From contig JASEGB010000002.1 in assembly GCA_030018275.1 (NCBI GenBank), forward strand, positions 59,638-123,637: 64,000 nucleotides of DNA, read 5' to 3'. The notes under the pieces were generated by a model. It was not told where the DNA came from, did no database searches, and saw nothing but the letters and a program-made list of their open reading frames with translations. Each line of letters starts with the position of its first letter. Positions within the stretch are counted from its first letter, which is position 1. This stretch comes from Actinomycetota bacterium. Lineage in GTDB: Bacteria; Actinomycetota; Aquicultoria; Subteraquimicrobiales; Subteraquimicrobiaceae. Positions 2,320 to 53,526 of this stretch are shown here, piece after piece. The position numbers were made by a program, and so were the translations under genes.

Positions 2320-3273
2320 CTATACCCATTTTCTACTCAATACTCTCCCTACAGCTTCCACGATATCCTGGCTGGTGAGTCCATAATGCTTGAGAAGCTC
2401 TGCAGCCGAACCGGATTGACCGAACTCATCCCTGATGCCTACCCTAGCTATAGGAGTGGGCGTTGTCTCCGCGAGCAATTCAGCTATGGCGCTCCCAAGT
2501 CCCCCTATTATGGTATGTTCCTCGGCAGTAACCACAGCTTTCGTCTTCTCAACGGATTCTAAAATGCCTTCGGCATCCAAGGGCTTTATGGTGGGTACGT
2601 TGATGACCTCGACGCTTATTCCCTTCTCCCCTAGCTTCTCCGCGGCTTCGAGCGCTTCATTGACCATAATGCCGATGGCGAAAATCGTAACGTCCGACCC
2701 TTTCCTCAATTTTAAAATCTCACCGAATCTAAACCTGTAATTCACATCGAATATAATGGGAGCGGGTTCGCGACCCAGCCTGATGAATATTGGACCTTCG
2801 ATGTGATAGGCTGCCTTTACTGCCTCCCGCGCCTCAAAGTAATCCGCCGGTACAACCACCTTCATGTTTGGAACAGCCCGCATGACTGCGATATCTTCGA
2901 CGGATTGGTGAGAAGAACCATCCGCCCCCACGGAAATCCCAGCATGAGTTGGACAGAGTTTAACATTAAGATTTGAGTAGGCAATAGTGTTTCTCACTTG
3001 CTCAAAAGCACGCCCGGTGGCAAAGATGGCAAAAGATCCCGTGTAACAAACCTTACCACAGGTGGAGATTCCAGCTGCAATATCCATCATGTTTTGCTCG
3101 GCGATCCCACATTCGATAAACCGCTCCGGATAAGCATTGGCGAACTTAATGCTGGTCGTGGATTTAGCTAGATCTGCATCGAGGACAACAACATTTGGAT
3201 ATTTTGCTCCAAGTTCCAGCAGAGCATCCCCATATGCCTCTCTAGTCGCCCTCTTCTCTCTTAAATGGTTCAC
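2320..3273 (-). CDS. Transketolase, C-terminal subunit
   Basis: 317 aa. Pyrimidine-binding and C-terminal domains of a split transketolase. GTG start. Paired with the N-terminal subunit upstream. Confidence 0.9.
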   Translation of the reverse strand: MNHLREKRATREAYGDALLELGAKYPNVVVLDADLAKSTTSIKFANAYPERFIECGIAEQNMMDIAAGISTCGKVCYTGSFAIFATGRAFEQVRNTIAYSNLNVKLCPTHAGISVGADGSSHQSVEDIAVMRAVPNMKVVVPADYFEAREAVKAAYHIEGPIFIRLGREPAPIIFDVNYRFRFGEILKLRKGSDVTIFAIGIMVNEALEAAEKLGEKGISVEVINVPTIKPLDAEGILESVEKTKAVVTAEEHTIIGGLGSAIAELLAETTPTPIARVGIRDEFGQSGSAAELLKHYGLTSQDIVEAVGRVLSRKWV

Positions 3274-3297
3274 CGTTCACCGCTCACAGTTTACAGT
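3267..3297. repeat. Tandem heptamer array (GTTCACC family), copy A. It overlaps the tkt C-subunit start codon.
   Basis: Plus strand reads ggttcacc gttcacc gctcaca gtttaca. Minus-strand reading is CTGTGAG CGGTGAA CGGTGAA CC, which includes GTG start. Confidence 0.7.
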
Positions 3298-11304: not shown

Positions 11305-12595
11305 GGCTCATCTGCCCTTTCCTTTTTTCACCCTCTCGAGGGTTAGCATTCAAGCCCAAACCCATCATTAATGCATTCACCAAAATTTTATCCCATTGAG
11401 ACCCACTGTATGTGGTGAGTTCCTCTATGACCGTTTCTTGATCCAGAGCTGGACGATAAGGACGAGCTGATGTCATAGCGTCATAGCTGTCAGCCACGGC
11501 TAAAATTCGAGCCATGAGGGGGATCATCTCCCCCTTAGTACCATCGACATAACCGGAACCATCCACCCGCTCATGATGATGAAAAATGGCGGGCACAACC
11601 TCCTTTAAGAATTCTATCTCTCTAATTATGGCCACGCCTATCTCCGGATGTTCCTCGACTTTCCTATATTCGGCGTGGGTAAGCTTCCCAGGCTTACTAA
11701 GAATTCTTCGAGTAATTCCTATTTTTCCCACATCATGGAGGAGAGCTGCGTACTTAAGCGTTTCGATTTTTTCCTCAGGCAAATGTAACTGCCTCGCGAT
11801 CTTCTCCGCATATTCCGCGACCCGTTCCGAATGGCCCCTGGTATATGGATCCTTGGCTTCAACCGCAGCGACCAGGGATTTCACCGTGCCCATGTAAGCT
11901 CCACGCAATTCCATATAAACTTGGAAGGTCTGCCTGGCGATGAGGAGGGGTGCTATGAGTAAGACGATTCCCGCTGGTCCAGCTTTGACATAGATTTGGG
12001 CCAAAATGACTCCTAACGGTGCGAGTGCAAAATAATTGGGAATGGCCCATTTGCAGTCAAAAAGCCAAATATTAACGGGGGAAATATCTTCCAAAAATCC
12101 GATCCCCATCGATACTAAAGAACTATTAATGAGAAAATAAGCAGCTGCACAAAGAATAAACGGTATAAGAATCCAAGGGAAATCAGAATAGCTAAGACCC
12201 TTGACCATTAAAATTGGTCCATGTGCATAAAGATAAACCAAACCCGCTATCCCCGTATCCAATATGGCCAGACTCCCATTGGCTAACCATCTATAAAAAG
12301 AGGATCTTTCCTTTATATCCCTCCAAACCACGGCGGTGGATAAGGCTGCCAGTGCAGCGGAAGCTGGTCCTAAAAGAAGAATGGCGGCATATAGGAGGGC
12401 AAAGCTAACGGAGACCGCTCCCACCTTGGGAAGATCTATTCCAAAGGACTCAGCGAGCCAAATTAATAAACCAAAGAGGAGAATATGCTGCCAAGATAGC
12501 ATAGGAGTGGCAGACACCAAGTAAAAGAGGAGAGCCGAGGCACACACGGTTAAAAATATCGAATATGCCTTAAAACTAATGGGTACTTTTTTCAA
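11288..12595 (-). CDS. Membrane-anchored HD-GYP domain protein (putative c-di-GMP phosphodiesterase)
   Basis: 435 aa. Carries LLHDVGKIG and HHHERVDGSGYVDG. The N-terminal polytopic domain is paralogous to the downstream gene. Confidence 0.82.
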   Translation of the reverse strand: MKKVPISFKAYSIFLTVCASALLFYLVSATPMLSWQHILLFGLLIWLAESFGIDLPKVGAVSVSFALLYAAILLLGPASAALAALSTAVVWRDIKERSSFYRWLANGSLAILDTGIAGLVYLYAHGPILMVKGLSYSDFPWILIPFILCAAAYFLINSSLVSMGIGFLEDISPVNIWLFDCKWAIPNYFALAPLGVILAQIYVKAGPAGIVLLIAPLLIARQTFQVYMELRGAYMGTVKSLVAAVEAKDPYTRGHSERVAEYAEKIARQLHLPEEKIETLKYAALLHDVGKIGITRRILSKPGKLTHAEYRKVEEHPEIGVAIIREIEFLKEVVPAIFHHHERVDGSGYVDGTKGEMIPLMARILAVADSYDAMTSARPYRPALDQETVIEELTTYSGSQWDKILVNALMMGLGLNANPREGEKRKGQMSLVGYI

Positions 12596-12715
12596 CCTTC
12601 AACCTCGTTTCAAGCTATCCCTTAATCCTCAACCTTGAACCCTATCAAATTCTAAATCTTGCACAAGTCAGAACTAAAGTTGCAATGATTGTTGGTTCTA
12701 AAAACCGCTTAACCT

Positions 12716-13045: not shown

Positions 13046-13080
13046 AACCCCATGTTATAAAACATGGGGTTCATGGGTTT
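13046..13080 (-). terminator. Rho-independent terminator downstream of csp
   Basis: Minus strand reads aaccccatgtt ttat aacatgggg followed by TTTTTCTATT. The stem is a perfect 9 bp. Confidence 0.75.
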
Positions 13081-13109
13081 GCTGTTAAATTCTTGAAAAT
13101 CTAACAGAC

Positions 13110-13310
13110 TTAGGGAGCTCTGCGGACATTCGCAGCTTGAGGGCCTCGGTCGCCTTGAACAATGTCGAATTCGACCTTTTCTCCCTCCCGTAGGGTTTTG
13201 AAACCCTCCTCCTGGATTGCAGAGAAATGAACGAATACATCTTCACCATCTTCGCGCTCGATGAATCCGTACCCCTTCTCTGCGCTGAACCATTTGACTC
13301 TTCCTTGCAC
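13110..13310 (-). CDS. cspA: Cold-shock protein (CspA family)
   Basis: [17 protein letters not shown] ... VFVHFSAI carries the RNP1 and RNP2 motifs. The likely start is a GTG 7 nt after a GGGAGG RBS. The listed TTG start at 13328 would add 6 aa. Confidence 0.9.
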
Positions 13311-13422
13311 TTCACAACCTCCCAACAAAAATTAAGCCACTTTCGTGGCAAGTCCTACTTGCAAGCTAACACTATCATAAATCATGAGGGGTGTCAATTT
13401 ATCATTTTCGGCTCAATAATAC

Positions 13423-14139
13423 TCAGTGATAGATAGTAGATCGAGCTATGGTGAGGACATTTACTCCATGCGCCCCTTGGGCGAGGAGGATTTTACTGCA
13501 TTCATTCACCGTGGCTCCCGTGGTTAAGACATCGTCTATTAAAAGAATCGTCTTATTTCGTAAATCTGCCTTACTTGAAGGAGAAAACACTCCTCTTACA
13601 TTTTTTCTTCTCTCCTCGATAGAGAGCTTATTTTGTTCCACAGTCTCTTTGGCTTTGATGAGAACTCCTTCGCAGGGCTTATCGACTCGTAGCGATATCT
13701 CCTCAGCCAATAAGCGCGATTGATTAAAACCCCTCTTGCGCTCCCTTCCTTTACTTAAGGGCACATAGGTGATCAAATCCACATCGAATAATCCCTGCTC
13801 AGCTCGGCTTATCATCAGTTGGGCGAAGACCGGCGCCAGTCTTCTGCCGTTATGGTATTTGAACCCGTGGATCGCCTCCCGCAAATTCCCATCATAAAGA
13901 CCAGCAGCCCGAGCCAAAGAGAATCGAAAATGCTTGCCACGGCACTCTCTGCATTCGTTGGTTTGAAGATTGCAGGGTTTTCCGCACTTAAGGCAGATGG
14001 GAAACTTAATCAAGGGCAAAGAAGAAAAACACTCGTCACAGAGTGGATCCCCACAAAGACAACCACAAACGAGGCACCGAGGAGGATATATCAAATTTAG
14101 CAAGCCCTTAAACAGCTTTCCCACCTTTCCCTCCCCCAC
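13423..14139 (-). CDS. comF: ComF family protein (phosphoribosyltransferase domain, ComFC-like)
   Basis: 238 aa. N-terminal Cys-rich zinc ribbon (CLVCGCLCGDPLCDEC). C-terminal PRTase motif LLIDDVLTTGAT. Confidence 0.8.
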   Translation of the reverse strand: MGEGKVGKLFKGLLNLIYPPRCLVCGCLCGDPLCDECFSSLPLIKFPICLKCGKPCNLQTNECRECRGKHFRFSLARAAGLYDGNLREAIHGFKYHNGRRLAPVFAQLMISRAEQGLFDVDLITYVPLSKGRERKRGFNQSRLLAEEISLRVDKPCEGVLIKAKETVEQNKLSIEERRKNVRGVFSPSSKADLRNKTILLIDDVLTTGATVNECSKILLAQGAHGVNVLTIARSTIYH

Positions 14140-14254
14140 AAACTCTTAAGACCAAAACTCCAATAATTTTCACACTTCGAATCGCTATTTCCTTAGTAAC
14201 CTTTTCCAAGTCTTTGATGGTTAGTGAGCTAGTGTCATTGCAAGGTATAGACAT

Positions 14255-15292
14255 TTATTCTCTAACGAGTTTCTCTAAATTGATCTCGAAAGGTAGTCTG
14301 ACGATCCCTTTTTCAGTGATGATGGCTTCGATGAGCTCGTGAGGGGTGATATCAAAGGCGGGATTGGCTATGGATATCCCACTTGGGGCTATTTGCTGAC
14401 CAAAGATATGAGTTACTTCTCTGGGATTTCGCTCCTCGATTGGGATTTGCTTCCCAGAAGGGATATTAAAATCAATGGTGGGCGTGGGAGCAGCTATATA
14501 GAAGGGGACATTATTCTCCTTCGCTAGAACTGCTAAGGTATATGTTCCAATTTTGTTGGCTACATCTCCATTGGCAGCAATTCTATCGGCACCCACAATT
14601 ACCTTGCTAATCTCTCCTATGCTCATGAGGAAACCCGCCATATTATCGGTGATTAAAGTGGCGGGTATTTTTTCCTTCATTAACTCCCAACATGTCAGTC
14701 GAGAACCTTGGAGAAGGGGGCGGGTCTCATCCACGTACACATGAATTTTCTTGCCCTGATTCCAAGCGGCTCGAATGACCCCCAGGGCGGTGCCATATCC
14801 TCCCGTGGCTAAAGTCCCTGTATTACAATGGGTGAGTATATTGTCCCCATCTTCTATGAGTGCTGCGCCAAGGGCTCCCAACTGGCGATTTGCCTCCTCA
14901 TCTTCCCTGGCAATCTCCATTGCTTCCTCATATAGGACTTTTTTCAGATCCTCGACGCAAAGATTCTTGCTTTTATGCACCAACCTCTTCATTCTTTGGA
15001 TGGCCCAAAAGAGATTGGCGGCTGTCGGTCTAGTCTGGGACATTTCTTCACAAACTCTCTCTATTTCATCGATGAACTGATCGCTGGTTTTCGCCGTGGA
15101 ATTTTTGGCTCCAAGAGCGATGCCAAAGGCAGCAGCCACCCCAAGGGCAGGAGCTCCTCTAACCTTCATGGATTTGATGGCTTCGGCGACTTGATGGGGA
15201 TTTGTGAATTCCAAATAATCTTCCTTAAGAGGAAGTTTCGTTTGATCCAGTATCCTTACCTTTTCATCAACCCACTCAATAGCCTTTATCAA
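14255..15292 (-). CDS. mtnA: S-methyl-5-thioribose-1-phosphate isomerase (eIF-2B alpha/beta/delta family)
   Basis: 345 aa. The N-terminal motif EWVDEKVRILDQTKLP and overall length match the MtnA / eIF-2B-like family. Confidence 0.82.
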   Translation of the reverse strand: MIKAIEWVDEKVRILDQTKLPLKEDYLEFTNPHQVAEAIKSMKVRGAPALGVAAAFGIALGAKNSTAKTSDQFIDEIERVCEEMSQTRPTAANLFWAIQRMKRLVHKSKNLCVEDLKKVLYEEAMEIAREDEEANRQLGALGAALIEDGDNILTHCNTGTLATGGYGTALGVIRAAWNQGKKIHVYVDETRPLLQGSRLTCWELMKEKIPATLITDNMAGFLMSIGEISKVIVGADRIAANGDVANKIGTYTLAVLAKENNVPFYIAAPTPTIDFNIPSGKQIPIEERNPREVTHIFGQQIAPSGISIANPAFDITPHELIEAIITEKGIVRLPFEINLEKLVRE

Positions 15293-15350: not shown

Positions 15351-15378
15351 CTGTGAACGGTGAACCGTGAACTGATTT
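15351..15378. repeat. Tandem heptamer array, copy B. It lies immediately 3' of the aldolase stop.
   Basis: ctgtgaa cggtgaa ccgtgaa. The same 21-mer occurs at 21400-21420. Confidence 0.75.
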
Positions 15379-17237: not shown

Positions 17238-17275
17238 TTGAAATCCCCCCTTATCTACGTTCTAGGTTCAAGCCT

Positions 17276-18109
17276 TCAACCTTCAACGACTTTTCGGACA
17301 ATGCCTTTAATGAGTTTTCTGAGATTTACCTCAGTTTTCTGAGCTTGAACCAGAACCTCTTCGTGAGTCACTTTCTTTTTATCCGATACCACATCGGTGA
17401 TGCAAGAAATTCCCAAAACCCTAAGTCCAGCATGGTTGGCCACTATTGCTTCAGGCACCGTCGACATCCCCACGGCATTTGCTCCTATCCTAGCCAGAAA
17501 TTCAATTTCTGCGGGAGTTTCATAACTCGGTCCTGGAACTCCCACATAGACACCCTTGTGTAACCTGATTCCCTCCTCCCGAGCAACCTTTTGAGCGATT
17601 TCAATGAGCTTCCGATCATAGGCCTGGGACATATCAAGGAAACGAGGTCCGAGTTCTGGGTCATTTAATCCGATAAGGGGATTGGTTCCCATAAGGTTGA
17701 TGTGATCGGTGATGATCATAAAATCCCTGACATCGAAATCGGGGTTAAGTCCTCCAGCCGCATTGCTGAGGATGAGTATCTCGACCCCCAATTCTTTAAA
17801 CACCCTGATGGGAAGGGTTATTCCTTTCATGGTGTATCCTTCATAATAATGAGGACGCCCCTGCATGACGATGACTTCTTTCCCCTCAAATTTACCGGAG
17901 ACTAAATTTCCCGAATGACCTGGGGTCATTGGTATAGGGAAATGAGGGATATCTCGATAAGGAATAACCTTTTTATCCTTAATTTCATCAACCAATCCAC
18001 CCAGTCCTGAACCCAAAACTATGCCAATCAATGGTTTTACTTCTATTCTCTCCCGGACAAAGTGTGTTGACTCTCTAACCTGGTTTTTGAATTGCTCTAC
18101 GGGATCCAA
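17276..18109 (-). CDS. Purine nucleoside phosphorylase / 5'-methylthioadenosine phosphorylase (PNP/MTAP family)
   Basis: 277 aa. It has the PNP family 2 fold motifs. The context favours an MTA phosphorylase role. Confidence 0.82.
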   Translation of the reverse strand: MDPVEQFKNQVRESTHFVRERIEVKPLIGIVLGSGLGGLVDEIKDKKVIPYRDIPHFPIPMTPGHSGNLVSGKFEGKEVIVMQGRPHYYEGYTMKGITLPIRVFKELGVEILILSNAAGGLNPDFDVRDFMIITDHINLMGTNPLIGLNDPELGPRFLDMSQAYDRKLIEIAQKVAREEGIRLHKGVYVGVPGPSYETPAEIEFLARIGANAVGMSTVPEAIVANHAGLRVLGISCITDVVSDKKKVTHEEVLVQAQKTEVNLRKLIKGIVRKVVEG

Positions 18110-18351: not shown

Positions 18352-19479
18352 TCATGAAGATTCAGCTAGTTTCTTCTTAAGCAAAGTTATCCTGTGAACC
18401 GGTGTGGGATCCACCCCATTTAAAACTGCGAGATAGGCACTGACAAAATCTCCAAAATATATGATGGAGAAGGTTCTAGTCAGTTTTGATTTGCCCTCCG
18501 CCCACACTTCAACAACATCGCCGAAATGATCTTCTATGAGCGATCTCGTGATCTCAATCCTCCTCTTAATCCTCTCCGGCTCACCCTCATCCCTGAGCAG
18601 GATCAGGTAGAAATTTTCCGTAATATTCTCCAAGAGTTCCCATCCCACCGTCTCATTGTGATTGAGTTCGGGGAAAACGTGCCAAAAGGCTGGTATCTTG
18701 GCATTCTCATTGAACTGGCACTTCCAACGAAGGGCAGCGACCGCAGTAGGACCATCGGAACCATAAACCACGGGAATCCTGCCAAAGAGCTTAATGGCTA
18801 AGCCCTTGGCTCCATTCTGCTCACAAGGTCGACTTAAGGATAACTTTTTTGCCTTATCTTTAAGGAGCTTGATGGTCTCCTCAATATCCCCCATCTTGTT
18901 CGCTATGATATCCGACTTCTGCAGGGCTATTAAGATTGGCAATGTGAGATAACCAAGAGCCGACCGGGGCTGAATGCCACCGGGAATTTTGATTAAAGGC
19001 ATACCGTGCTTTTGAGCCGCACTTTCCAGCATGCCGCCGGATGCTATGGATATTATGGGACAGCCCAACCGAACAGCCTGATCGAAACAGCTCAAAGTCT
19101 CTTCAGTATCACCGGAATAGCTCACCGCAAAGCATAATGTCCCTCGATCAACAAAACTGGGAATGGAGTAACCCTTGCTCACCCAAATCGGGACTTTGAC
19201 CTCATCGCTTAAGATAGTTTTGGTGATGTCCCCACTTATGCCAGAGCCACCCATCCCCATAATCAGAATGGAATTTAGAGATGGCACCCTGCCGTGCCCA
19301 TGGGGCCAGGCAGGCAGGAAATCGAGGGGTGTTTCCCCCGCCAACCTGACCGCTTCCTCACATTGGTCTGGGAAATGCTCTAAACCTAAGAGCATTCCCT
19401 CTGCATCTACTGCCTTTACCTTTTCAACATCGTCTAGATCGATGGTTATCCCATTCACCGAATGTTTCCACTTCTCCAT
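18352..19479 (-). CDS. Bifunctional phosphoglucose/phosphomannose isomerase (SIS domain, archaeal-type PGI/PMI)
   Basis: Two SIS domains. The N-terminus MEKWKHSVNGITIDLDD fits this family. The listed ORF extends 41 codons upstream into a repeat element, and that extension is rejected. Confidence 0.78.
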   Translation of the reverse strand: MEKWKHSVNGITIDLDDVEKVKAVDAEGMLLGLEHFPDQCEEAVRLAGETPLDFLPAWPHGHGRVPSLNSILIMGMGGSGISGDITKTILSDEVKVPIWVSKGYSIPSFVDRGTLCFAVSYSGDTEETLSCFDQAVRLGCPIISIASGGMLESAAQKHGMPLIKIPGGIQPRSALGYLTLPILIALQKSDIIANKMGDIEETIKLLKDKAKKLSLSRPCEQNGAKGLAIKLFGRIPVVYGSDGPTAVAALRWKCQFNENAKIPAFWHVFPELNHNETVGWELLENITENFYLILLRDEGEPERIKRRIEITRSLIEDHFGDVVEVWAEGKSKLTRTFSIIYFGDFVSAYLAVLNGVDPTPVHRITLLKKKLAESS

Positions 19480-19626
19480 TAAAATTGCTTCCCTGTTTGG
19501 GTCTTTGGGTCGACACGGAGGTTGACCCCTACGTTTGATCGTCTTGCGGTTTTTTGTAGGGACGAACCTCTGTGTTCGCCCTTCAGTAGCGCGGTGGTTC
19601 ATCCGCCGCTATTGCTTTGTCGGGGA

Positions 19627-19667
19627 CCCGCCTGGAGCGAAGCCTCCCTTTGGGACCGGACGGGCAG
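19627..19667. repeat. 40-bp repeat, copy 1 (intergenic)
   Basis: cccgcctggagcgaagcctccctttgggaccggacgggcagg. Copy 2 at 19965-20005 differs at about 2 positions. Confidence 0.7.
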
Positions 19668-19680
19668 GTAAACCCCGACG

Positions 19681-21228
19681 CTACGATCTACAGCGAGCCT
19701 CGTCCAGAATCTCTTGTCCCACTTTAAGGAGAGTAGAAACTCTTTGGGGACTGCTGGCTTCGGCGTAAATGCGAACGACCGCCTCCGTTCCAGATGGTCT
19801 GATCAGGAGCCAACTCTCATCGGCAAGGAGAAACTTGCACCCATCCATATTGTCGATGGTAACCACCTTAACTCCAGCCAATTCGCTGGGATTGAAAGTC
19901 TTTAAATAGTTAAGGAGATTTTCCCTTACAGTTGATGCCGTTTCCACACCATGTCTGCCGACAGGCCCGCCTGGAGCGAAGCCTCCCTTTGTGACCGGAC
20001 GGGCAGGCAGGTCCACCCGGTCATAATAAAAATAACCTATTCTCTTCATTAAATCATCCACCAATTCCTTGAGGGTCTTCCGGTGAGTGATCATGATTTC
20101 CACGAGAAGCAACCCAATTAAGATTCCATCCCTCTCCGGGATGTAATTCTTTATCCCAATGCCTCCGCTTTCCTCGCCCCCGATTAAAACATCGCGGGTC
20201 AAAATATGCTCGCATATGTATTTGAATCCAATGGGAGTTACATGTAGGGGCAGATTATACTTCCGCGATAAGATATCAATCATTTGAGTGGTGGAAACGG
20301 TCTTGACCACTTCGCCGCGCCATTTGCGCTGGTTAACCAGGTGCTCTAAAAGAAGTGCAAATATCTGGTGAGAGTCGATGAATGCTCCTGAAGGATCAAT
20401 GGCTCCCGTTCGATCCGCATCTCCATCCATCGCCAGACCTACATCGAAACCTCTCCTTTTGACCTCGCGACGAAGATCCTCGAGGTTCTCCGAGATGGGC
20501 TCGGGATTTATCCCCCCAAAGGTAGGATTTATCCCCTTATGGATTTCTACCACCTCGCAACCAAGCCTGGAAAGAGCTTCACTTAAGTATCCCTGCCCCG
20601 CTCCGTACATGGGATCGACAACCACCTTGAGTTGGAAGTTAGGAGTTGGGAGTTGGGGGAATAGGTTTTTGTCTAGGAGGGTGAGGATGTTGGAGAGGTA
20701 TGCTTCCTTGGGATCGAAAAAGCGCAGGCGATCTTCCTGGGTTGCTTCCTCGCCCCAGGCCCCTTTTCGGGGCAGAGAAATCTTGAGCGGTTTCTTACCC
20801 CGAGCTGAATTCCTTCGATAGCACTGCTCTATTTTCCCGGTGATCTCCGGAGTTGCGGAACCGCCGAAAGAAGCTTTAAACTTCAAACCATTGTACTGAG
20901 GAGGGTTATGGCTCGCCGTAATGAGAATGGCTCCATCCGCCCGTTTGTCCACAACGGCAAATGAGACCACGGGAGCGGGAGCAAAACTCTCAGTGAGTAA
21001 AACATCGAAGTCATTTGCCGCGGCAACGAGAGCCGCTTCCAAGGCAAACCTGTCCGAAAGAAACCTGGTATCATAACTGACAATTAATCTTGGCCGAGGG
21101 CTGATAGCTGAAGGCTGAAAGCTGATTTTAATGTAGTCGCATATGGCTTGAGAGACCCATCTCACGTTCTCGAAGGTGAAATCGTCCGCTATTATTCCTC
21201 TCCAGCCATCAGTGCCAAATCTAATCAT
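19681..21228 (-). CDS. Phosphomannomutase/phosphoglucomutase (alpha-D-phosphohexomutase)
   Basis: 515 aa. Active-site TASHNP, a metal-binding DGDADR-like loop and the phosphate-binding RPSGTE motif are present. It contains the second copy of the 40-bp repeat in-frame (PARPVTKGGFAPGGPVGRHG). Confidence 0.9.
   Translation of the reverse strand: MIRFGTDGWRGIIADDFTFENVRWVSQAICDYIKISFQPSAISPRPRLIVSYDTRFLSDRFALEAALVAAANDFDVLLTESFAPAPVVSFAVVDKRADGAILITASHNPPQYNGLKFKASFGGSATPEITGKIEQCYRRNSARGKKPLKISLPRKGAWGEEATQEDRLRFFDPKEAYLSNILTLLDKNLFPQLPTPNFQLKVVVDPMYGAGQGYLSEALSRLGCEVVEIHKGINPTFGGINPEPISENLEDLRREVKRRGFDVGLAMDGDADRTGAIDPSGAFIDSHQIFALLLEHLVNQRKWRGEVVKTVSTTQMIDILSRKYNLPLHVTPIGFKYICEHILTRDVLIGGEESGGIGIKNYIPERDGILIGLLLVEIMITHRKTLKELVDDLMKRIGYFYYDRVDLPARPVTKGGFAPGGPVGRHGVETASTVRENLLNYLKTFNPSELAGVKVVTIDNMDGCKFLLADESWLLIRPSGTEAVVRIYAEASSPQRVSTLLKVGQEILDEARCRS
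19965..20005. repeat. 40-bp repeat, copy 2, inside the phosphomannomutase CDS
   Basis: cccgcctggagcgaagcctccctttgtgaccggacgggcagg. Confidence 0.7.
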
Positions 21229-21392: not shown

Positions 21393-21426
21393 CACTGTGA
21401 ACTGTGAACGGTGAACCGTGAATGAA
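21393..21426. repeat. Tandem heptamer array, copy C. It lies immediately 3' of the gmd stop.
   Basis: ctgtgaa ctgtgaa cggtgaa ccgtgaa. Confidence 0.75.
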
Positions 21427-21430
21427 GGTG

Positions 21431-23404
21431 TTAAACTCTTTTGCGCCAATAGTTTAGCAAGTCTTCCAGGGTCTTTTCGAAGGGGATTTCCGGTTCCCAG
21501 CCCGTGGCTTTCTTGAACTTAGTGGCATCTCCCGCCAAGATGGGAACATCCGAGGGACGCATGCGAGCGGGGTCTTGCCTTATCTCCACATCCACATCGC
21601 TCAATTTGAGCAGCATGTTGAGCATATCTGCAATCTTAACCGCCTTCCCCGATGCGATATTATACACCTCTCCAGGCTCACATTTTTCCAGCGCCAGCCA
21701 ATAAGCTCTTACCACATCTCGGACATCCGAGAAATCGCGTTTCGCTTCCAGATTTCCCACTTCAATTACGGGCTCTTTTAAGCCCTTTTCAATCTCCGCA
21801 ATCTGTTTAGCGAAGTTCGACGCCACAAAAACTTCTCCACGCCTTGGTCCCGTGTTATGAGCTAAAAGATTACCCACGCCCGCTTGAAACATTCCATCTT
21901 CTGTAGAAAAATCCCACACCTCCTCAGAATAATCTATTGGATTAAGAGATTTTATAATTCCATCTGGCTTTTGAAGATGTTTGCCCCAATTTTTATGAGC
22001 TTTTATATCTGAATTTAAATTTATAGAAATATATCCTTTCCTTTTATCTTCGAAATTAATATTAATTTCCTGTCCAGTAGTCTCTTTTATTAAATAACAC
22101 AATCCCGCGGCCAATATCCTTGACTTAGTCTTGAAATTTTTGAATTTATATTCACCATGTCCTTTCTTTAATCCATCTCCTTCATTATAGCCTTCAAGGA
22201 AAGCAAGTTTTGCTTCCTTTTGAGCGTTTAAGATACATTGGGGAACTTTTTTATTTCCATCAGAAGCATATACCTGTGGATATAACCACTTAGCAAATTT
22301 TCCAGGATTTCTTACAGATAATCTTAAACTACTCTTATTTTCTTGATAAAAACTATCTTTTCCAAAATGTTTAAGGAGAATTCTTTTTGTTTTATCTAAA
22401 AGAGTTTTATTAGTGTTATCAACTCTAACTTTCCCTACAGTTATGCATCCTTCTGCAACAAAAAATCCAAAAAACCAAGCTACCTCTTCATTCACATGCA
22501 TTATATTACTCGATGGATAATTAACAATAGCAACTTTATCCCCTATTTGAAGGTTTACAACTTCTTCCGGTTTCAAATCCTTACCAATAATAGAATGATT
22601 ATCTGTAACTTCTAATAGTCCCTTTTTAGTTAAAATTCTAATTAATTTATTATCGCGAATGGGATGGCAACTAATTTCTTTAAGTTTAACCCAATGATTA
22701 TTTGACCACACTGATAAATTGTATCTCCGTAAATTCCAAACTTTGACATCCCCTATAAACTTGCCTGATTTATATCCTCCGATTTTATATTTATTTCTCA
22801 TCTCATTAATGTATTTGATATCTATCAAACCTGAGGAATCGTCTCTAATCATTACTGGTGTCCACTTAGATACTGAGTGATTGAAAGCACGGGTTCGCAC
22901 GATGTGCATGCCATAGCTTCGATGATATTGGTATCCCAATAAATCCTGAGCTACCTTGCTCACCCCATAGGGACTCAGAGGCCTTAAGGGATTGGTCTCC
23001 CTTATGGGAATCTCATTTTCATAGACGAGACCATACTCCTCGCTGCTTCCAGCGAGCTGAACTCGAGGGTTAAGCTTCAGCTCGCGGATGGCTTCGAAGA
23101 GATTAACCTGACCAATGATATTTGTCACTAGGGTCTCAGCGGGTGCATGCCAGGAACTTGGTATGTACGATTGTGCTGCTAAATGAAAAATGTAATCGGG
23201 TTTGCTTTGCTCTAAAGCTTTAATTACCGAGGAGGCATCTCGAAGATCACAATCAATTAGCTTAATCTTGCTCCTGATGTGATCGATATTTTCCGTTCGA
23301 CTCCTCCACCTGATGGTCCCGAAAACTTCAGCGCCCTTTCCCAGGCAGTATTCGGCGAGATGACTTCCCACAAACCCCGTTATACCTGTGATGAGTACCT
23401 TCAC
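21431..23404 (-). CDS. gmd: GDP-mannose 4,6-dehydratase interrupted in-frame by a 341-aa LAGLIDADG intein
   Basis: The N-extein carries the SDR Rossmann fold GITGFVGSHL ... YGVSK ... RAFNH. The C-extein reads TGPRRGEVFV ... to the end. The exteins total about 316 aa, typical for Gmd. The canonical Gmd motif FNHESPRRGETF is split between H176 and T518. Confidence 0.9.
   Translation of the reverse strand: MKVLITGITGFVGSHLAEYCLGKGAEVFGTIRWRSRTENIDHIRSKIKLIDCDLRDASSVIKALEQSKPDYIFHLAAQSYIPSSWHAPAETLVTNIIGQVNLFEAIRELKLNPRVQLAGSSEEYGLVYENEIPIRETNPLRPLSPYGVSKVAQDLLGYQYHRSYGMHIVRTRAFNHSVSKWTPVMIRDDSSGLIDIKYINEMRNKYKIGGYKSGKFIGDVKVWNLRRYNLSVWSNNHWVKLKEISCHPIRDNKLIRILTKKGLLEVTDNHSIIGKDLKPEEVVNLQIGDKVAIVNYPSSNIMHVNEEVAWFFGFFVAEGCITVGKVRVDNTNKTLLDKTKRILLKHFGKDSFYQENKSSLRLSVRNPGKFAKWLYPQVYASDGNKKVPQCILNAQKEAKLAFLEGYNEGDGLKKGHGEYKFKNFKTKSRILAAGLCYLIKETTGQEININFEDKRKGYISINLNSDIKAHKNWGKHLQKPDGIIKSLNPIDYSEEVWDFSTEDGMFQAGVGNLLAHNTGPRRGEVFVASNFAKQIAEIEKGLKEPVIEVGNLEAKRDFSDVRDVVRAYWLALEKCEPGEVYNIASGKAVKIADMLNMLLKLSDVDVEIRQDPARMRPSDVPILAGDATKFKKATGWEPEIPFEKTLEDLLNYWRKRV
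21854..22876 (-). mobile_element. Intein (class 1) with a LAGLIDADG homing-endonuclease domain, inside gmd
   Basis: Ser1 follows the ...FNH extein. Block B is LEVTDNH. The two dodecapeptide motifs are FFGFFVAEGCI and FLEGYNEGDG. The C-terminal blocks are VWDFSTEDGMFQAGVGNLLAHN. The +1 extein residue is Thr. The region is visibly more AT-rich than the flanking gmd sequence. Confidence 0.85.
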
Positions 23405-23467
23405 CTTTCAACCTCCCAAATTTAAAATTTCATAAAAAATTACAGTTTTGGGTTGTTCAATCCGAAT

Positions 23468-23489
23468 AACAGGTCTAAAGACCTGTTTC
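23468..23489. repeat. Hairpin repeat aacaggtc taaa gacctgtt, family member 1
   Basis: Perfect 8-bp inverted repeat. The same core occurs at 31826-31845, 53369-53391 and 53470-53526. Confidence 0.7.
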
Positions 23490-23565
23490 TACTATTTTAA
23501 ATGAATGTAAAAATTGGATTTAAGGATTTATTATGCCTGGTAAATAAAGGTGTCGAGGTCTGACC

Positions 23566-24678: not shown

Positions 24679-24738
24679 TTATAATCCCCTCCAATTTGTG
24701 ATTCGCTTTTTGTCGGGGATAAACCCCGACACTACTTA

Positions 24739-26618: not shown

Positions 26619-26679
26619 AGTTCATCGTTCACAGTTCACCGTATAATTCGTTCACCGTTCACCGTGGACCGTTCACCGC
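26619..26679. repeat. Tandem heptamer array, copy D. At about 8 units it is the longest copy, and it lies upstream of the GT2 start.
   Basis: gttcaca gttcacc gtataattc gttcacc gttcacc gtggacc gttcacc. Confidence 0.75.
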
Positions 26680-26807: not shown

Positions 26808-26925
26808 AAAAGTAGGGGTGGGGTTTATCCCCACCCAAAATAATCATTCATTAATGTAGGGGCGGAACTCCATGCCCGCCCAAAGCTATAGCGGGGGACA
26901 AGCCCCCGCCTACAAATTCGATGTA
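26808..26925. repeat. Three tandem GC-rich hairpins sharing a TAGGGG / CCCGCC core
   Basis: gtaggggtgggg-ttta-tccccaccc. taggggcgg-aactccatg-cccgccc. tagcggggg-acaag-cccccgcctac. They lie between the GT2 start and the galU stop. Confidence 0.55.
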
Positions 26926-31715: not shown

Positions 31716-31788
31716 TTTCCTGCACCTTTGTAACTTCGCATTTTTAAACACCTCGTAGAAACAAACCTTCAGGCAGACACACTTTTGA

Positions 31789-31845
31789 TCTGTAGAAACA
31801 GATCTTCAGGTCTGTTATTAGTAACAGGTCTAAAGACCTGTTTTT
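31789..31845. repeat. Composite hairpin repeat holding both family cores
   Basis: gtagaaacagatcttcaggtctg is the reverse complement of the core at 53478-53500 with 1 mismatch. It also holds aacaggtctaaagacctgtt. Confidence 0.7.
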
Positions 31846-31976
31846 ACATGATTCTACACTCTACCGAAGTGCAACCTTTATAATAAATATACGAGATAAC
31901 CGACCGAATACCTTCTAGCTAAGCTGCTTCATCTCGCCCGTGTCTGCCGTATTCTGTAGCGCGGCCGTAGCCTTTA

Positions 31977-39809: not shown

Positions 39810-40337
39810 TCACATACTCCATATGAGGTGTTTTACCCTCATTGGTGAATAATCATTTATGATATTGAAATAGACTGCACATTGAAAAGTAAATATGCAA
39901 GTAAGTACCAGAGTCTTTACCCTGTCTAAATGCTTGACTGGTAGTTTGTCAGAAAGAGCAAATATTTCCTGAATCTGTCCAAAGAAAGGCTCAATGGTAA
40001 TTGATCTATTCTTGTAGATGGCTCTTCCCTCTTTGGAATTAAAGAACTCTGCTTCTTTTCTTCTCTCTTTCTTGGTATGCTTTTTGACTTCTACTGGGGT
40101 AATTAGCTTTTTTTCTCGCTTTTTCTCGTACTCTTTTAATTTGTTGTCATCATAGCCCGCATCGCCAGTAATAAATTTAGTCTCTTTAGGAAGAGAAGCT
40201 GTTAGTTTTGGATATAACTTATTATCTGGCACATTAGCACTTACCACATCAGCATTTAGAGTCAATATTTCCACAAGAGGGGACTTTCTGCTTTTTAATA
40301 TCATCTTTGTGCCAAATGTTGCCATTAGCCCAGGCAA
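39810..40337 (-). pseudogene. IS4/IS5-family DDE transposase, C-terminal fragment
   Basis: 175 aa. It has the DAGYD and IEPFFGQI motifs. The N-terminal half is absent or frameshifted. Confidence 0.7.
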
Positions 40338-50869: not shown

Positions 50870-51010
50870 TTTCTCACGGAGAGAGTGAGATCCAGAAAGT
50901 ATCTTCCTCACAACGAAGTTATCGTCGGTGTGGCTCATTTTAAACTGAATCATCTCTCCTAATAATCCTAAAGTTGCAAATTGGACACCCATAAGCATTA
51001 GAAGAACACC
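50870..51010. repeat. Displaced copy of the 3' end of the GT2 gene at 52363-53328 (copy A)
   Basis: gtggctcattttaaactgaatcatctctcc...cccataagcattagaagaacaccgaaaag aligns to 52425-52515. Confidence 0.6.
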
Positions 51011-51059
51011 GAAAAGCAAAATATGGCGATAAAAACCACTTTATCTGCAGATGCATTTC

Positions 51060-51458
51060 CTAGGAGCTTTTCTTCTCAATCCATCTTTTAATAATGCGAT
51101 GAACATCTTCGGCTGCATTAAGTGCTTCTTTTGCATCTCCGAGAGAAGGCATGGAAACACTACTCGCTGGAACAGCGTCAGGATACCTAGTGGGGATATA
51201 GTACCCATCGATGACCTTGAATTCCTTCTCATATCCTAATAACTCCGTTTTGATTTCGTAACAAAGCGGCCAAAGTTCCACAAGCTTATGGGTCTTCGGA
51301 TAAAGCCTGCCATTAAAAAGTAAAAAAGCTTTTAAACTCTTCTCAACGGATTGCTGGGCTAAAAAGCAAACCTGAGCATAGAAAGCATTTTCCAACCCTA
51401 AACGAGCGAATTTTAAATCATCTTCAGCTCTAGATAACCATTTTTCATGCTGCTGCAT
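51060..51458 (-). CDS. HEPN-domain protein (toxin of a HEPN/MNT pair)
   Basis: 132 aa. It has a HEPN helix bundle. It overlaps the MNT gene by 14 nt. Confidence 0.75.
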   Translation of the reverse strand: MQQHEKWLSRAEDDLKFARLGLENAFYAQVCFLAQQSVEKSLKAFLLFNGRLYPKTHKLVELWPLCYEIKTELLGYEKEFKVIDGYYIPTRYPDAVPASSVSMPSLGDAKEALNAAEDVHRIIKRWIEKKSS

Positions 51459-51834
51459 CGTAAATCACTTTACCTTTTTCCAAAACCTCCTTCTGAAAAA
51501 ACAGATTGCTTTTTGCCTCCTCCTCAAATTCTTCCGGCGTATACACCAGAAAATCAATACCTACGTCATAGTCACATAAAGTGATTACCTCTTTTAATCT
51601 TTCATAAAAACCTGTATTTGTTTTTTTTATGATGAGCAAATCGATATCGCTTGTTAGTGAAATTTGTCCACTAACAATGGAACCGAACAGGATTATCTTC
51701 TCTGGCTTATATTTCTCTTTTAAAGTGCTAACGATAGATTCAATATTCCTTTCTAAAAGCTTTTTTCTGCTTTCACACAAATTCTTAGTCACTCTACCTC
51801 TCCTCTCCGTTTTGCTTTCAAGATACTGCTCCAA
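51445..51834 (-). CDS. Minimal nucleotidyltransferase (MNT antitoxin)
   Basis: 129 aa. Motif GSIVSGQISLTSDIDLLI. TTG start. Confidence 0.75.
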   Translation of the reverse strand: MEQYLESKTERRGRVTKNLCESRKKLLERNIESIVSTLKEKYKPEKIILFGSIVSGQISLTSDIDLLIIKKTNTGFYERLKEVITLCDYDVGIDFLVYTPEEFEEEAKSNLFFQKEVLEKGKVIYDAAA

Positions 51835-51949
51835 TTCGGCAATAAACTTCTCTGCGTCTCTAACAACTATCTCATCCGTGGTTCGTCAATTTTTATCTTG
51901 ATGCTATAGTCAGACTCCTCTCTTTCCTTGCGAATGTAATCATCTGTAC

Positions 51950-52200
51950 ACCTCTCACATCAACGATGTTAATACCCATTATAACTTCTCTTACTACCCC
52001 AATCTAACCTCGCATCTTTTATTTTTCGAAGTTGTAATCTTCGCCTGCTATAGCCTCTCGCTATACAAGAAATCTTATCCTCTTTGCTCACTATCCCAAT
52101 GCTGAGAGCCAATAATTCTTCTTATGGTAAAGTTATCATTAATGTGGCTCATTCCAGACTGAATCATCTCTCCTCCACTCGTCTCTAAATTCTTTGACAA
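51950..52200. repeat. Degenerate duplicate (copy B) of 52298-52500, the GT2 3' end plus about 80 bp of its downstream flank
   Basis: cacatcaacgatgttaatacccattataacttctcttactacc matches catctcaatagatgttaatacccattataactacttttactaacc. The GT2 tail homology follows it. Confidence 0.6.
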
Positions 52201-52362
52201 TATCTTCCCACTTCATAGTAATTGCCTCCTTCCCAATTCCATAAATCTATTCCGTCCCTTTCGATACTATTATAAAGAGGGTCGGCGACAGACACCTCTC
52301 ATCTCAATAGATGTTAATACCCATTATAACTACTTTTACTAACCCAGTCTAACCTGCATTTT

Positions 52363-53328
52363 TTATTTTCCGAAGTTTTGTGAGCGCTGAGAGCCAAGAA
52401 TCCTTCTTATTGTAAAGTTTTCGCTGGTGTCACTCATTTTAAATTGAATCATCTCCCCGAGTAATCCCAGAGAGATAAATTGGATTCCCATAAGCATTAA
52501 TAGAACACCGAAAAGTAGAAGAGGTCTGTGACCAATTCCTTGACCCATAAACCAAAGTACAGATAGATAGGCATTGATGATGAATCCCAAAATCAACATG
52601 ATCAGTCCCAGTAGTCCGAAAAGATGCAAAGGCTTTAAGCAGTAGTCGGTCAAAAACATGACAGTGAGTAGGTCGAGAAAGCCTCTGATGTAGCGTATCG
52701 CTCCGTACTTCGATTGCCCCGATTGCCTCGGTCTGTGGTTTATTTTGACTTCCCCAACCTTGAAGCCCTTCCCGTGAACAAGAACGGGAAGATACCTATG
52801 TAGCTCCCCGTAAAGCTTTATGCCCTTGGCTGTCTCTCGCCTATATACTTTGAATCCGCAGTTAAAGTCGTGGAGTTTTATTCCGCTTATTAAGGAGGTG
52901 ACCTGATTGAAAAGTTTTGAGGGAACCCTTTTTGAGAAGGAATCATGTCGAGGATATCTCCAGCCGGAGACGAGGTCGTATCCCTCCTCGATTTTTGAGA
53001 GGAATTTGGGAATCTCTGCTGGATCGTCTTGAAGATCGGCATCCATGGTGATAATTATTTTACCATCCGCATATTTGAATCCAGCAGAAAGGGCAGCAGC
53101 TTTTCCAAAATTACGCCGCAATTGAATGATCTTTACCGCTTTATCCTTGGCGTACAACTTCTCAAGGGAAGATATAGAACCATCTGAGCTTCCATCATCA
53201 ACGAAGACTATCTCGTAGCTCTTCCCGAGATTAGATAATGTGCTTGTGAGCTGTTTGTGGAGTTGTTCAAGACTCTGGCTCTCATTGTAAACTGGAATGA
53301 CTATGGAGATTTCATTCAAATTGATCAA
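52363..53328 (-). CDS. GT2 polyprenol-phosphate glycosyltransferase (ArnC/GtrB-like) with two C-terminal TM helices
   Basis: 321 aa. It carries IPVYNE, VFVDDGSSDGS and DADLQDDP, then a TM pair. Confidence 0.85.
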   Translation of the reverse strand: MINLNEISIVIPVYNESQSLEQLHKQLTSTLSNLGKSYEIVFVDDGSSDGSISSLEKLYAKDKAVKIIQLRRNFGKAAALSAGFKYADGKIIITMDADLQDDPAEIPKFLSKIEEGYDLVSGWRYPRHDSFSKRVPSKLFNQVTSLISGIKLHDFNCGFKVYRRETAKGIKLYGELHRYLPVLVHGKGFKVGEVKINHRPRQSGQSKYGAIRYIRGFLDLLTVMFLTDYCLKPLHLFGLLGLIMLILGFIINAYLSVLWFMGQGIGHRPLLLFGVLLMLMGIQFISLGLLGEMIQFKMSDTSENFTIRRILGSQRSQNFGK

Positions 53329-53368: not shown

Positions 53369-53526
53369 AAAACAGGTCTTTAGACCCGTGAGGCTATTGA
53401 CAGGCGAGAAATCTTGCTCCTCGCATGTATGAAAGCACTATAATTGTTAACAATCACCTGTTAATAATAACAGACCTGAAGGTCTGTTTCTACAGGTCTA
53501 AAGGTCGTGCCTGACCTGAAGGGTCA
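53369..53526. repeat. Repeat-rich intergenic block holding aacaggtct-family hairpins, a gcgag hairpin and a gtcattgcgag-family element (to 53590)
   Basis: aaaacaggtctttagacccgtg. gcgagaaatcttgctcctcgc. cagacctgaaggtctgtttctacaggtctaaaggtcgtgcctgacctgaagggtcat. ggattgcttcggctacgcctcgcaatgac. Confidence 0.65.

Follow-up and report, generated by a model that had tools for sequence, protein, structure and literature searches.

How does the same short sequence come to lie both within the reading frame of a housekeeping gene and in the non-coding DNA immediately beyond it? The window (the whole 64-kb stretch of DNA analysed here) contains a 42-nt repeat, termed unit A, at two sites given in + strand coordinates, 19627–19668 and 19966–20007, which agree at 41 of 42 positions (97.6%) with one G/T difference. 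The initial annotation had detected this pair, which is real, with coordinates that were off by 1–2 nt and an identity (~95%) that was slightly low. Tolerating up to three mismatches brought up no third match anywhere in the 64 kb, and 100 shuffles gave 0. One copy had been placed in frame within the phosphomannomutase coding sequence, and this copy (19966..20007, minus strand; CCTGCCCGTCCGGTCACAAAGGGAGGCTTCGCTCCAGGCGGG on the gene strand) is found to make up exactly 14 codons, 408–421, encoding PARPVTKGGFAPGG. The other had been placed between the PMM stop codon (19681–19683) and the start of PGI, and that location is confirmed: it spans 19627..19668 (minus strand) in the loop of a REP-type hairpin directly past the stop codon, and carries C at position 16 where the CDS copy carries A. 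The 42-nt boundaries are identical at the two sites. Placement of the CDS copy is ambiguous by 5 nt (GCCTG), and that of the intergenic copy by 0 nt, with no target duplication and no flank homology. The two targets are unlike: TTTA^ for the REP loop, CCTG^ for PMM. Unit A has no stop codon in any frame and lacks the GTAG tetranucleotide; its terminal 8 nt pair at 6 of 8 positions plus one wobble (CCTGCCCG against the reverse complement of CAGGCGGG, 6/8), and it folds only modestly, with a DNA MFE of about −7 kcal/mol and an RNA z-score between about −1.9 and −2 in context.

The host gene of the CDS copy (phosphoglucomutase/phosphomannomutase family, PMM; 19681..21228, minus strand) encodes a protein of 515 aa with all four domains intact. 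Exactly the 14 residues encoded by unit A (408–421) are missing from homologous proteins: from P0002, from that of UBA2594 and from 20 others of greater distance (21 homologs). The suggestion that homologs might carry the same residues encoded by divergent DNA does not hold. An alignment of PMM with PDB 1tuo runs to residue 410 and picks up again at 446, and in the AF2 model (pTM 0.86) pLDDT falls below 50 only at residues 412–430, 154–164 and 240–243. The insert is thus predicted to form a low-confidence (disordered) surface loop of domain 4, between its first strand and first helix; domain 4 is where the initial annotation had suggested mapping it. The catalytic Ser lies at a distance from this loop, as do the metal loop and the RPSGTE loop that binds phosphate. 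The insertion would merely lengthen a flexible Gly/Pro/Ala-rich segment, and would be tolerated because its 14 codons contain no stop in any frame and because it lies away from the active-site elements.

The locus was compared in three relatives: Ca. Subteraquimicrobium UBA2594 (~94–98% identical to the window), GCA_040755895 (~91%) and GCA_030019535 (99.4% over 21.5 kb). Identities give the tree ((window, UBA2594), GCA_040755895), with 94.4% against about 91%. GCA_030019535 has unit A at both positions; its CDS copy is identical to that of the window, including a private C>A change, and its intergenic copy bears a private C>T change of its own. UBA2594 has an identical intergenic unit A at the orthologous site and a CDS site that is otherwise conserved and lacks the unit, and GCA_040755895 has unit A at neither site. 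Nucleotide comparison with these two relatives therefore provides precise empty sites for both copies. Judged by these alignments, both copies are evidently derived insertions that arose in separate events, the intergenic one being the older; the polarity assigned to the CDS event is that of parsimony with two outgroups. The initial annotation had proposed that a small repeat element was inserted with the frame preserved, or else gene conversion. These data support that proposal, whether the CDS copy arrived by mobilisation of a discrete unit or by short-homology copying. The contrary outcome that it named, an intergenic copy derived by duplication of ancestral coding residues, is contradicted by the homologs, which lack the residues.

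The genome carries bona fide REP-like units composed of GTAG and a hairpin, one of which hosts the intergenic unit A. Six GTAG-hairpin units were observed in the window (the host hairpin and five others) against 0.58 expected. The host supplies GTAG, a 5′ arm and the start of the loop on one side of unit A (GTAGCGTCGGGGTTTA; 19669..19684, minus strand), the TAG within it being the PMM stop codon, and a 3′ arm on the other (TCCCCGAC; 19619..19626, minus strand). GCA_040755895 retains the empty hairpin site, GGGGTTTA^TCCCCGAC. An empty twin of the host hairpin (GTAGTGTCGGGGTTTATCCCCGACA) lies at 24711..24735 (minus strand) of the window; its ortholog in GCA_040755895 has received a family insert distinct from unit A, 58 nt long, which agrees with unit A in loop position and orientation; the site is empty in both the window and UBA2594. 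A terminator scan returned only a weak hairpin at 19591–19610, which is distinct from unit A.

The intergenic copy had also been held responsible for a spurious 41-codon N-terminal extension of the downstream ORF. This gene encodes a bifunctional-type PGI (SIS + bact-PGI_C) and spans 18352..19479 (minus strand) from its probable true start. The extension, at 19480–19602, is probably indeed spurious, since gene calls in the relatives begin at the MEKW/MERW methionine (19479 in the window). The 42-mer is not its cause, however: it lies outside the extension, upstream of the first ATG at 19602, and the ORF instead reads through an inverted, REPIN-like pair of GTAG-hairpin units (19509..19583; units at 19509–19534 and 19558–19583).

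Directly 3′ of the CDS unit A lies a second element, the S unit (CCTGTCGGCAGACATGGTG; 19947..19965, minus strand), which encodes part of PVGRHGV. It is present in the PMMs of all three lineages, and about 7 aa (GRHGVET) are missing at this point from homologs further removed; by this distribution S is evidently an older, related insertion. On the other side, unit A is flanked by GACCTG (20008..20013, minus strand), a sequence common to a composite found downstream of rho in UBA2594 and represented by GACCTA in a glycosyltransferase insert. Unit A with its S flanks (67 nt, 19947–20013) matches the rho-downstream composite at 94%, and the A+S arrangement is seen at three loci, RNase R among them. 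Within PMM, unit A differs from the family consensus at 1 of 42 positions, compared with about 3 of 17–19 between the S beside it and other S units (Fisher p about 0.07); the smaller divergence suggests that unit A is the younger of the two. The domain 4 loop of PMM would then have grown stepwise, by about 7 aa and later by 14.

The initial annotation had noted that uniqueness of the 42-mer to its two sites would argue against a mobile repeat. Unit A recurs in UBA2594, both downstream of rho and within a ComEC-like ORF; the window's own lineage has it in RNase R too, as an A+S composite, and there 26 residues lie opposite 5 in PDB 8cdu. Unit A appears to be part of a small, undescribed, modular and lineage-specific family of GC-rich, weakly palindromic repeats with ends of the form CCTGCC...CAGGYGG(G). 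Family lengths of 21–54 nt are all multiples of three; single units measure 21–42 nt and composites up to 69 nt, and GC content is 62–76% against 42% for the genome. A GT2 glycosyltransferase gene has a 54-nt family insert, for which an empty allele is known. In the PGI coding sequence, a family-like insert of 28 nt (CCTGCCTGCCTGGCCCCATGGGCACGGC; 19291..19318, minus strand) replaces 1 nt, a net gain of 27 nt or 9 codons, and encodes LPAWPHGHG; it is absent from GCA_040755895 and present in GCA_030019535, and an assembly gap occupies the site in UBA2594. Exact-core copies number three in the UBA2594 draft, and the window's lineage has three copies in about 73 kb. A search for homologs of the N-terminus of the ComEC-like protein gave no match, so the polarity of that insertion is taken solely from its composition and its place between hydrophobic segments.

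The DNA of this clade that was examined amounts to about 125 kb, and profile searching (nhmmer) of the DNA examined for diverged A/B units found nothing beyond the known copies. Unit A had no match in JGI metagenomes, viral contigs, or phage or plasmid records, and Rfam identified no family in the window. A 20-mer scan of metagenomes matched L005 and L006, which share the 20-mer and nothing else, and these were set aside as chance matches. A six-frame concatenated unit peptide searched against 5.8 billion proteins matched none, not even the window's own protein, as matches this short cannot reach E≤10. The sole match of an exhaustive HMMER search with a 30-aa shell+A peptide, P0121, is an unrelated tandem-repeat protein whose score was summed from weak stretches. 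Identity as a CRISPR repeat, a riboswitch or sRNA, an intein-like segment or captured filler DNA was also rejected, since none of these fits single, dispersed, identical-ended copies in both coding and non-coding DNA.

We consider it probable that unit A is a discrete, non-autonomous mini-repeat of this lineage-specific family that entered the PMM–PGI region twice, independently, and is tolerated in the PMM loop. The first insertion, common to the window's lineage and UBA2594, would have been into the loop of the GTAG-type REP hairpin just past the PMM stop, and the second, in the window's lineage only, into the PMM coding sequence directly 5′ of the older S unit. Because the intergenic insertion combines unambiguous 42-nt boundaries with the lack of both a target-site duplication (TSD) and flank homology, unit A must, on this sequence evidence, have moved as a discrete entity at least once. 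Tentatively, mobilisation of the units may have occurred in trans, through an enzyme that works on single-stranded or hairpin DNA, for which RAYT/IS200-like HUH chemistry would be the obvious candidate. Such an activity would account for insertions that leave no target duplication, in hairpin loops and beside units already present. The ORFs of the 64-kb window include no relevant transposase or RAYT (Y1_Tnp), only a DDE fragment; no related full-length IS was seen in about 125 kb, and the DDE fragment (39810–40337) shares no ends with unit A. Copy number looks low, and the missing GTAG, weak terminal inverted repeats and modest folding of unit A also count against the mini-repeat reading. Three of five junctions (PMM, GT2 and PGI) show 5–10 nt of similarity between the target and the element end, which fits homology-assisted copying and target recognition equally well.

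Could gene conversion over short homologies, or template switching during replication, instead have written the CDS copy into PMM, with the S unit providing the homology? The donor would be either an A+S composite elsewhere, of the kind that UBA2594 has downstream of rho, or, at a distance of 339 nt, the intergenic copy. S and GACCTG were already in PMM before the event, the rho-downstream composite matches the empty PMM site over 10 nt on the left (GACCTGCCTG) and 5 nt (GCCTG) on the right, and the GT2 and PGI targets likewise resemble unit 3′ ends; local copying is further favoured by the confinement of all the window's family units to 19285–20013. We nevertheless regard this account as unlikely. 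The REP-loop insertion has the same 42-nt boundaries without any flank homology, the S flank in PMM was not co-converted and keeps 3 differences from the rho-type S, and the neighbouring intergenic copy offers junction microhomologies of just 4 nt and 1 nt. Local duplication alone is contradicted by the copies at unlinked loci. Loss rather than gain has even less to recommend it. If A+S were ancestral in PMM, a precise, hairpin-aided deletion of unit A between GCCTG direct repeats must have occurred independently in UBA2594 and GCA_040755895. The 5-nt repeat flanking the 42 nt would indeed make a slippage deletion precise, and the composite exists at three loci; yet the tree would demand two identical losses in place of one gain, unit A appears younger than S and is absent from every more distant PMM, and we judge such a history very improbable.

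The 14-aa peptide might alternatively be a selected protein module, a functional loop to which the DNA repeat is secondary. In its favour, five of the six coding copies are read in a common frame and orientation (Pro-Ala...) and give similar Pro/Gly/Ala-rich peptides. However, the same sequence also occupies intergenic DNA and hairpin loops that are non-coding, disorder is predicted for the segment, the host proteins are unrelated in function, and the peptide is found in no other protein among 1.84 billion cluster representatives, so that selection for a module is hardly credible. A repeat misassembly that spliced 42 nt into PMM can be practically dismissed: the source is a short-read MAG, and the assembly gaps of UBA2594 do coincide with family units, but the independently assembled GCA_030019535 has the same in-frame insertion with its private C>A and an intergenic copy that differs by its own private change, and junction k-mers shared over at most 10 nt are too short to mislead an assembler.

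Insertion of a discrete mini-repeat, the reading that we favour, has several implications. It is in Rickettsia that selfish repeats settling in frame within housekeeping genes are best documented. Here, dated, stepwise events with preserved empty sites are found in an Actinomycetota lineage (class Ca. Aquicultoria) that is unrelated and uncultured, with units of only 21–42 nt, and they offer a concrete example of protein loop growth. REP hairpin loops would be reusable as landing pads at one defined position. Annotators of such MAGs should bear a repeat origin in mind when they meet spurious ORFs, assembly gaps or short Gly/Pro-rich ‘lineage-specific loops’. Should hairpin targeting and the frame bias prove to be genome-wide, the family would provide a useful handle on mechanisms of single-strand DNA integration. 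A bolder proposal, to which we give little weight, is that the units are previously undescribed ‘codon-phased’ mini mobile elements, adapted to persist in essential genes and spread by hairpin-loop-directed single-strand integration that also hits REP hairpins at one loop position; it is prompted by unit lengths that are multiples of three, the stop-free frames of unit A and the single frame of almost all coding copies. If true, these elements would be about three times smaller than the Rickettsia palindromic elements (RPEs), the smallest so far shown to behave in this way, and a tractable model of selfish DNA that lengthens protein loops.

Among known systems, MITEs are mostly 50–500 bp long and show clear terminal inverted repeats together with target-site duplications. 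Those of the Correia/NEMIS, ERIC, BOX and cyanobacterial types resemble the present units in being small and non-autonomous and in permitting in-frame fusions when intragenic, but the terminal inverted repeats of unit A are weak (6/8) and its single unambiguous insertion lacks a TSD. PATEs, derived from IS200/IS605, insert 3′ of a fixed tetra- or pentanucleotide. They share with unit A the lack of a TSD and a dependence on hairpins, which makes a single-strand insertion route plausible, whereas the TTTA^ and CCTG^ targets of unit A are unlike one another and its units are far shorter. REP and REPIN sequences are about 20–40 nt long and occur in tens to hundreds of copies per genome. Like RAYT-mobilised REP/REPIN/BIME sequences, which are imperfect palindromes, the units are short and GC-rich and lack target duplications; their own palindromy is weak. 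REP clusters are described as arising by insertion into or beside existing elements (PMC3116915). Unit A differs in having no GTAG/CTAC, an apparently low copy number and no RAYT nearby in the window, and its location is not extragenic: it is found in PMM, RNase R and the ComEC-like ORF, and related units in PGI and GT2. RPEs (Ogata et al. 2000) are, as summarised in PMC10969869, about 100–150 bp long and inhabit obligate intracellular Rickettsia. They too are non-autonomous, occur both intergenically and in frame in unrelated housekeeping genes, have frame-compatible lengths and a recurrent frame, and are apparently tolerated (here in predicted loops); in-frame insertion into unrelated genes is seen here in PMM, RNase R, GT2 and PGI. 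The units described here nevertheless measure 21–42 nt (composites up to 69 nt), have no sequence in common with RPEs, are modular and tandem, also occupy REP hairpin loops, and belong to an uncultured Actinomycetota lineage known from MAGs alone. RPEs and REP/REPIN clusters are the closest analogues of unit A, which is a member of neither.

The initial annotation had described a repeated sequence of about 40 nt lying both within a phosphoglucomutase/phosphomannomutase-family gene (PMM) and in the adjacent intergenic region. The repeat is real, although its coordinates and identity figure had been slightly off: it is a 42-nt direct repeat (unit A) at 19627-19668 and 19966-20007, identical at 41/42 positions. 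With up to 3 mismatches allowed these are the only two matches in the 64-kb window, and none was found in 100 dinucleotide-preserving shuffles. The local genes are all on the minus strand, and on the gene strand unit A reads CCTGCCCGTCCGGTC[C/A]CAAAGGGAGGCTTCGCTCCAGGCGGG, with a GC content of 71-74% against 42% for the window overall and no stop codon in any of the six frames. The upstream copy corresponds precisely to codons 408-421 (PARPVTKGGFAPGG) of PMM (gene 19681-21228, 515 aa, all four Pfam domains present), and the second falls between the PMM stop codon and the downstream gene, PGI.

Alignment with homologs, proposed in the initial annotation as a check, bore out an insertion in PMM. 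Among 22 aligned proteins, the closest relative (P0002, 92% identical) and 20/20 others lack exactly 14 residues, the site reading DLPV--------------GRHG in homologs and DLPARPVTKGGFAPGGPVGRHG in the window; alignment to the best solved homolog, 1tuo, stops at residue 410 and restarts at 446. Immediately 3' of the coding copy is S (CCTGTCGGCAGACATGGTG), a related but older unit, to which PMM owes approximately 7 residues (GRHGVET) that more distant PMMs lack. In the related genome GCA_040755895, the sequence compared (L001) has no copy of unit A at up to 3 mismatches; on the gene strand it reads GGACCT^GCCTGTCGGCAG at the coding site and, past the PMM stop codon, GTAGCGTCGGGGTTTA^TCCCCGAC, and the window carries the same 42 nt at each caret. 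The search beyond the window that had also been proposed was made with a 22-nt core of unit A against one genome per GTDB species, and matched only Ca. Subteraquimicrobium carltonvillense UBA2594 (Actinomycetota, class Ca. Aquicultoria), a genus not named in the searchable literature. UBA2594 has an identical intergenic copy at the orthologous site, and its 494-aa PMM lacks the coding copy.

Syntenic DNA of the window is 94.4% identical to UBA2594, and either is ~91% identical to GCA_040755895. By these comparisons both copies of unit A are derived insertions of different age. Given the site states and the identities, the parsimonious order places the S unit of PMM, common to all three lineages, as the oldest step, followed by the intergenic unit A shared by the window and UBA2594, and finally by the coding copy, which is limited to the window's lineage. 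The initial annotation was right in its main reading, that a small repeat element has been inserted with the reading frame preserved. Misassembly was ruled out by the sister strain GCA_030019535 (99.4% identical to the window over 21.5 kb, large indels absent), which has both copies and shares the private C>A change of the window's coding copy. Its intergenic copy has its own private C>T, indicating that the two copies now evolve independently.

In an AlphaFold2 model of PMM (pTM 0.86, mean pLDDT 83), pLDDT values below 50 are limited to residues 412-430, 154-164 and 240-243. The first of these segments takes in most of unit A together with S and separates strand 401-408 from helix 431-444 of domain 4, the domain for which structural mapping had been suggested; the motifs for catalysis and ligand binding are left intact. 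Segment 154-164 includes another private 7-aa insert, PRKGAWG, encoded by a 21-nt in-frame sequence at 20752-20772 (CCCCGAAAAGGGGCCTGGGGC) with a CCCC-GAAAA-GGGG hairpin, which is single in the window and absent from UBA2594 and GCA_040755895. Heptanucleotide tandem arrays (GTTCACC/GTGAACC, GAGTTGG, GCTGAAA, TTCAACC), reminiscent of cyanobacterial STRR repeats, are also common in the window. Two are within PMM (20629-20657 and 21100-21125), where they are translated (ISFQPSAISPRP and PQLPTPNFQLK) at gaps relative to PDB 1tuo, and others are intergenic (21394-21422, 26620-26678, 3268-3291, 15353-15372, 17267-17287 and 12591-12605); copy number varies, with a 7-nt indel at 21403-21409 relative to GCA_030019535 and a 22-nt difference from other relatives. 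Two distant Actinomycetota PMMs (P0032 and P0037) carry 1-2 copies of the peptide SPPRGEDKGEGA in a different, N-terminal variable loop, which suggests that repeat-derived loop insertions may occur in PMM of other lineages too.

The intergenic copy occupies the loop of a hairpin, GTAG-CGTCGGGG-TTTA^T-CCCCGAC, in which the TAG of GTAG is the PMM stop codon and which has the classic layout of REP elements, GTAG followed by a GC-rich stem. This insertion has unambiguous boundaries and lacks a target-site duplication; placement of the coding copy has a 5-nt ambiguity (GCCTG). The window holds six such GTAG-hairpins against 0.58 expected, all extragenic (251, 19509-19534, 19558-19583, 24711-24735, 26812-26836 and 26891-26913). 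One of the six, at 24711-24735, is a twin of the host hairpin with an empty loop in both the window and UBA2594. In its orthologue in GCA_040755895, TA is replaced by a different insert, of 58 nt, which shares both loop position and orientation relative to GTAG with the window's intergenic copy and, like it, ends in CAGGCGG followed by TCCCCGAC. The inverted hairpin pair at 19509-19583 resembles a REPIN. In the PGI ORF, the extension of 41 codons at the N-terminus is probably spurious; it arises from reading through these neighbouring hairpins and not, contrary to the initial claim, from the intergenic 42-mer.

Unit A belongs to a modular family. Together with its flanks it spans 67 nt (19947-20013) and matches, at 94% identity, a composite in the intergenic DNA immediately following rho in UBA2594. 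A ComEC-like ORF of UBA2594 carries in-frame a diverged copy of unit A and, after it, unit B (33 nt, CTTGCCCGTCAAAGCCCAGGCATGGCAGGTGGG); unit B recurs in the REP-loop insert of GCA_040755895 and in a 54-nt (18-codon) in-frame insert in a glycosyltransferase gene (GT2) of the same genome, where the window is empty. PGI in the window has a net 27-nt (9-codon) family-like insert not present in GCA_040755895, and RNase R of GCA_030019535, ~14 kb beyond the window's left edge, has an A+S composite (26 residues versus 5 in PDB 8cdu). This RNase R (13065-15033 of the sister-strain locus L008) is called as three consecutive ORFs of 142, 109 and 404 aa, the third carrying the insert, which reflects either a frameshift or pseudogene, or assembly errors. 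The window's family units all lie within 19285-20013, and two assembly gaps in UBA2594 adjoin family units. Additional, degenerate members in the window's lineage may be represented by short S-like GC-rich islands in L008, at 19107-19130 in the LeuRS C-terminus (CCTGGCCTGCCGGCAGGCAGGG, encoding PGLPAGRE) and at 19505-19560 between genes (...CAGGCGGGCGCAGGCTATGGCGGGCAGG).

Units A and B are 62-76% GC, against 42% for the window, and the end pattern CYTGYCYRTS...CAGGBKG gives 0.5 matches per shuffled window. Component units of 42 (A), 33 (B) and ~21 nt (S), and net coding inserts of 42, 27 and 54 nt, are all multiples of three. Five coding occurrences (PMM, PGI, ComEC-1, GT2 and RNase R) start in phase 0 (CCT-GCC, Pro-Ala) in sense orientation, the exception being one reversed partial unit in the ComEC-like ORF. 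Either selection on the peptide that the units encode or targeting in a preferred direction could account for this bias (p ~0.004 by our calculation, assuming six equiprobable states).

As read from the aligned genomes, units have inserted repeatedly and datably, with empty sites kept in relatives and boundaries identical where flanks are unrelated; the one unambiguous junction lacks a target-site duplication, one REP hairpin-loop position has been used twice by two different cargos, and new units have inserted beside existing ones. Most simply, this would be read as the movement of a discrete unit, on single-stranded or hairpin DNA, by a function acting in trans. The window's ORFs include no Y1/HUH gene, only a DDE_Tnp_1 transposase fragment (39810-40337, 175 aa); the contig of GCA_030019535 ends near window position ~42.3 kb by our coordinate projection, and the spot may be variable or rich in repeats.

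The main rival to mobilisation of a discrete unit is copying of the unit into a site through short homology. An A+S composite like that downstream of rho has flanks sharing 10 nt and 5 nt with the empty PMM site, and the targets in GT2 and PGI likewise resemble the 3' ends of units. The intergenic neighbour, as donor to the coding site, would offer microhomologies of just 4 nt and 1 nt. Since flank homology cannot account for the REP-loop insertion, at least one event needs a discrete-unit mechanism; either process could have produced the coding copy. Alternatively, an A+S composite might have been ancestral in PMM and unit A precisely deleted twice independently, which is less parsimonious and hard to square with the lower divergence of unit A (1/42) compared with the adjoining S (~3/17-19).

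The region has further variable features. A 1023-nt in-frame insertion with a LAGLIDADG_3 match, an intein (21856-22878, within the minus-strand ORF 21431-23404), interrupts a gene of the GDP-mannose-dehydratase/epimerase family; it is present in the 99.4% identical sister strain and absent from UBA2594 and GCA_040755895, indicating recent lineage-specific acquisition. Between the orthologues of 23404 and 23566, UBA2594 has several hundred extra bases absent from the window (insertion point ~23433), with a small GIY-YIG-nuclease-like ORF (…YTGVTSNLQRRVYEHKNKLVEGFTRKY…) and GC-rich flanking repeats. Another, distinct dispersed repeat, richer in AT and built from GTAGAAACAG with AACAGGTCT-AAAG-ACCTGTT hairpins, some in inverted pairs, occurs at 23467-23492, 31782-31847 and 53456-53503, and at ~19455-19490 of L008. 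Around a HEPN/nucleotidyltransferase toxin-antitoxin pair (50916-52515), several 45-101-nt segments recur at 80-87% identity (50916-51016 with 52415-52515, and 51948-52033 with 52292-52377), and multiple toxin-antitoxin genes with PIN domains are present in the window too.

Unit A had no match in the Rfam, phage, plasmid, viral-contig or JGI-metagenome collections. A MITE would be expected to have a target-site duplication, but unit A has none and its terminal repeats are weak; nor does it have the fixed target of IS200/IS605-type elements. Rickettsia palindromic elements insert in-frame into unrelated genes (PMC10969869). Unit A is functionally alike in this respect, but it is 42 nt where those elements are ~100-150 bp, and shares no sequence with them. 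The family resembles REP/BIME/REPIN clusters, yet differs in its lack of GTAG, its intragenic copies, its apparently low copy number and the absence of shared sequence. It is not a member of either group, and its tiny modular units, codon-phased lengths, frame bias and targeting of REP hairpin loops are unusual. We conclude that, within the known kind of selfish mini-repeats, the element represents a new variant of narrow distribution.
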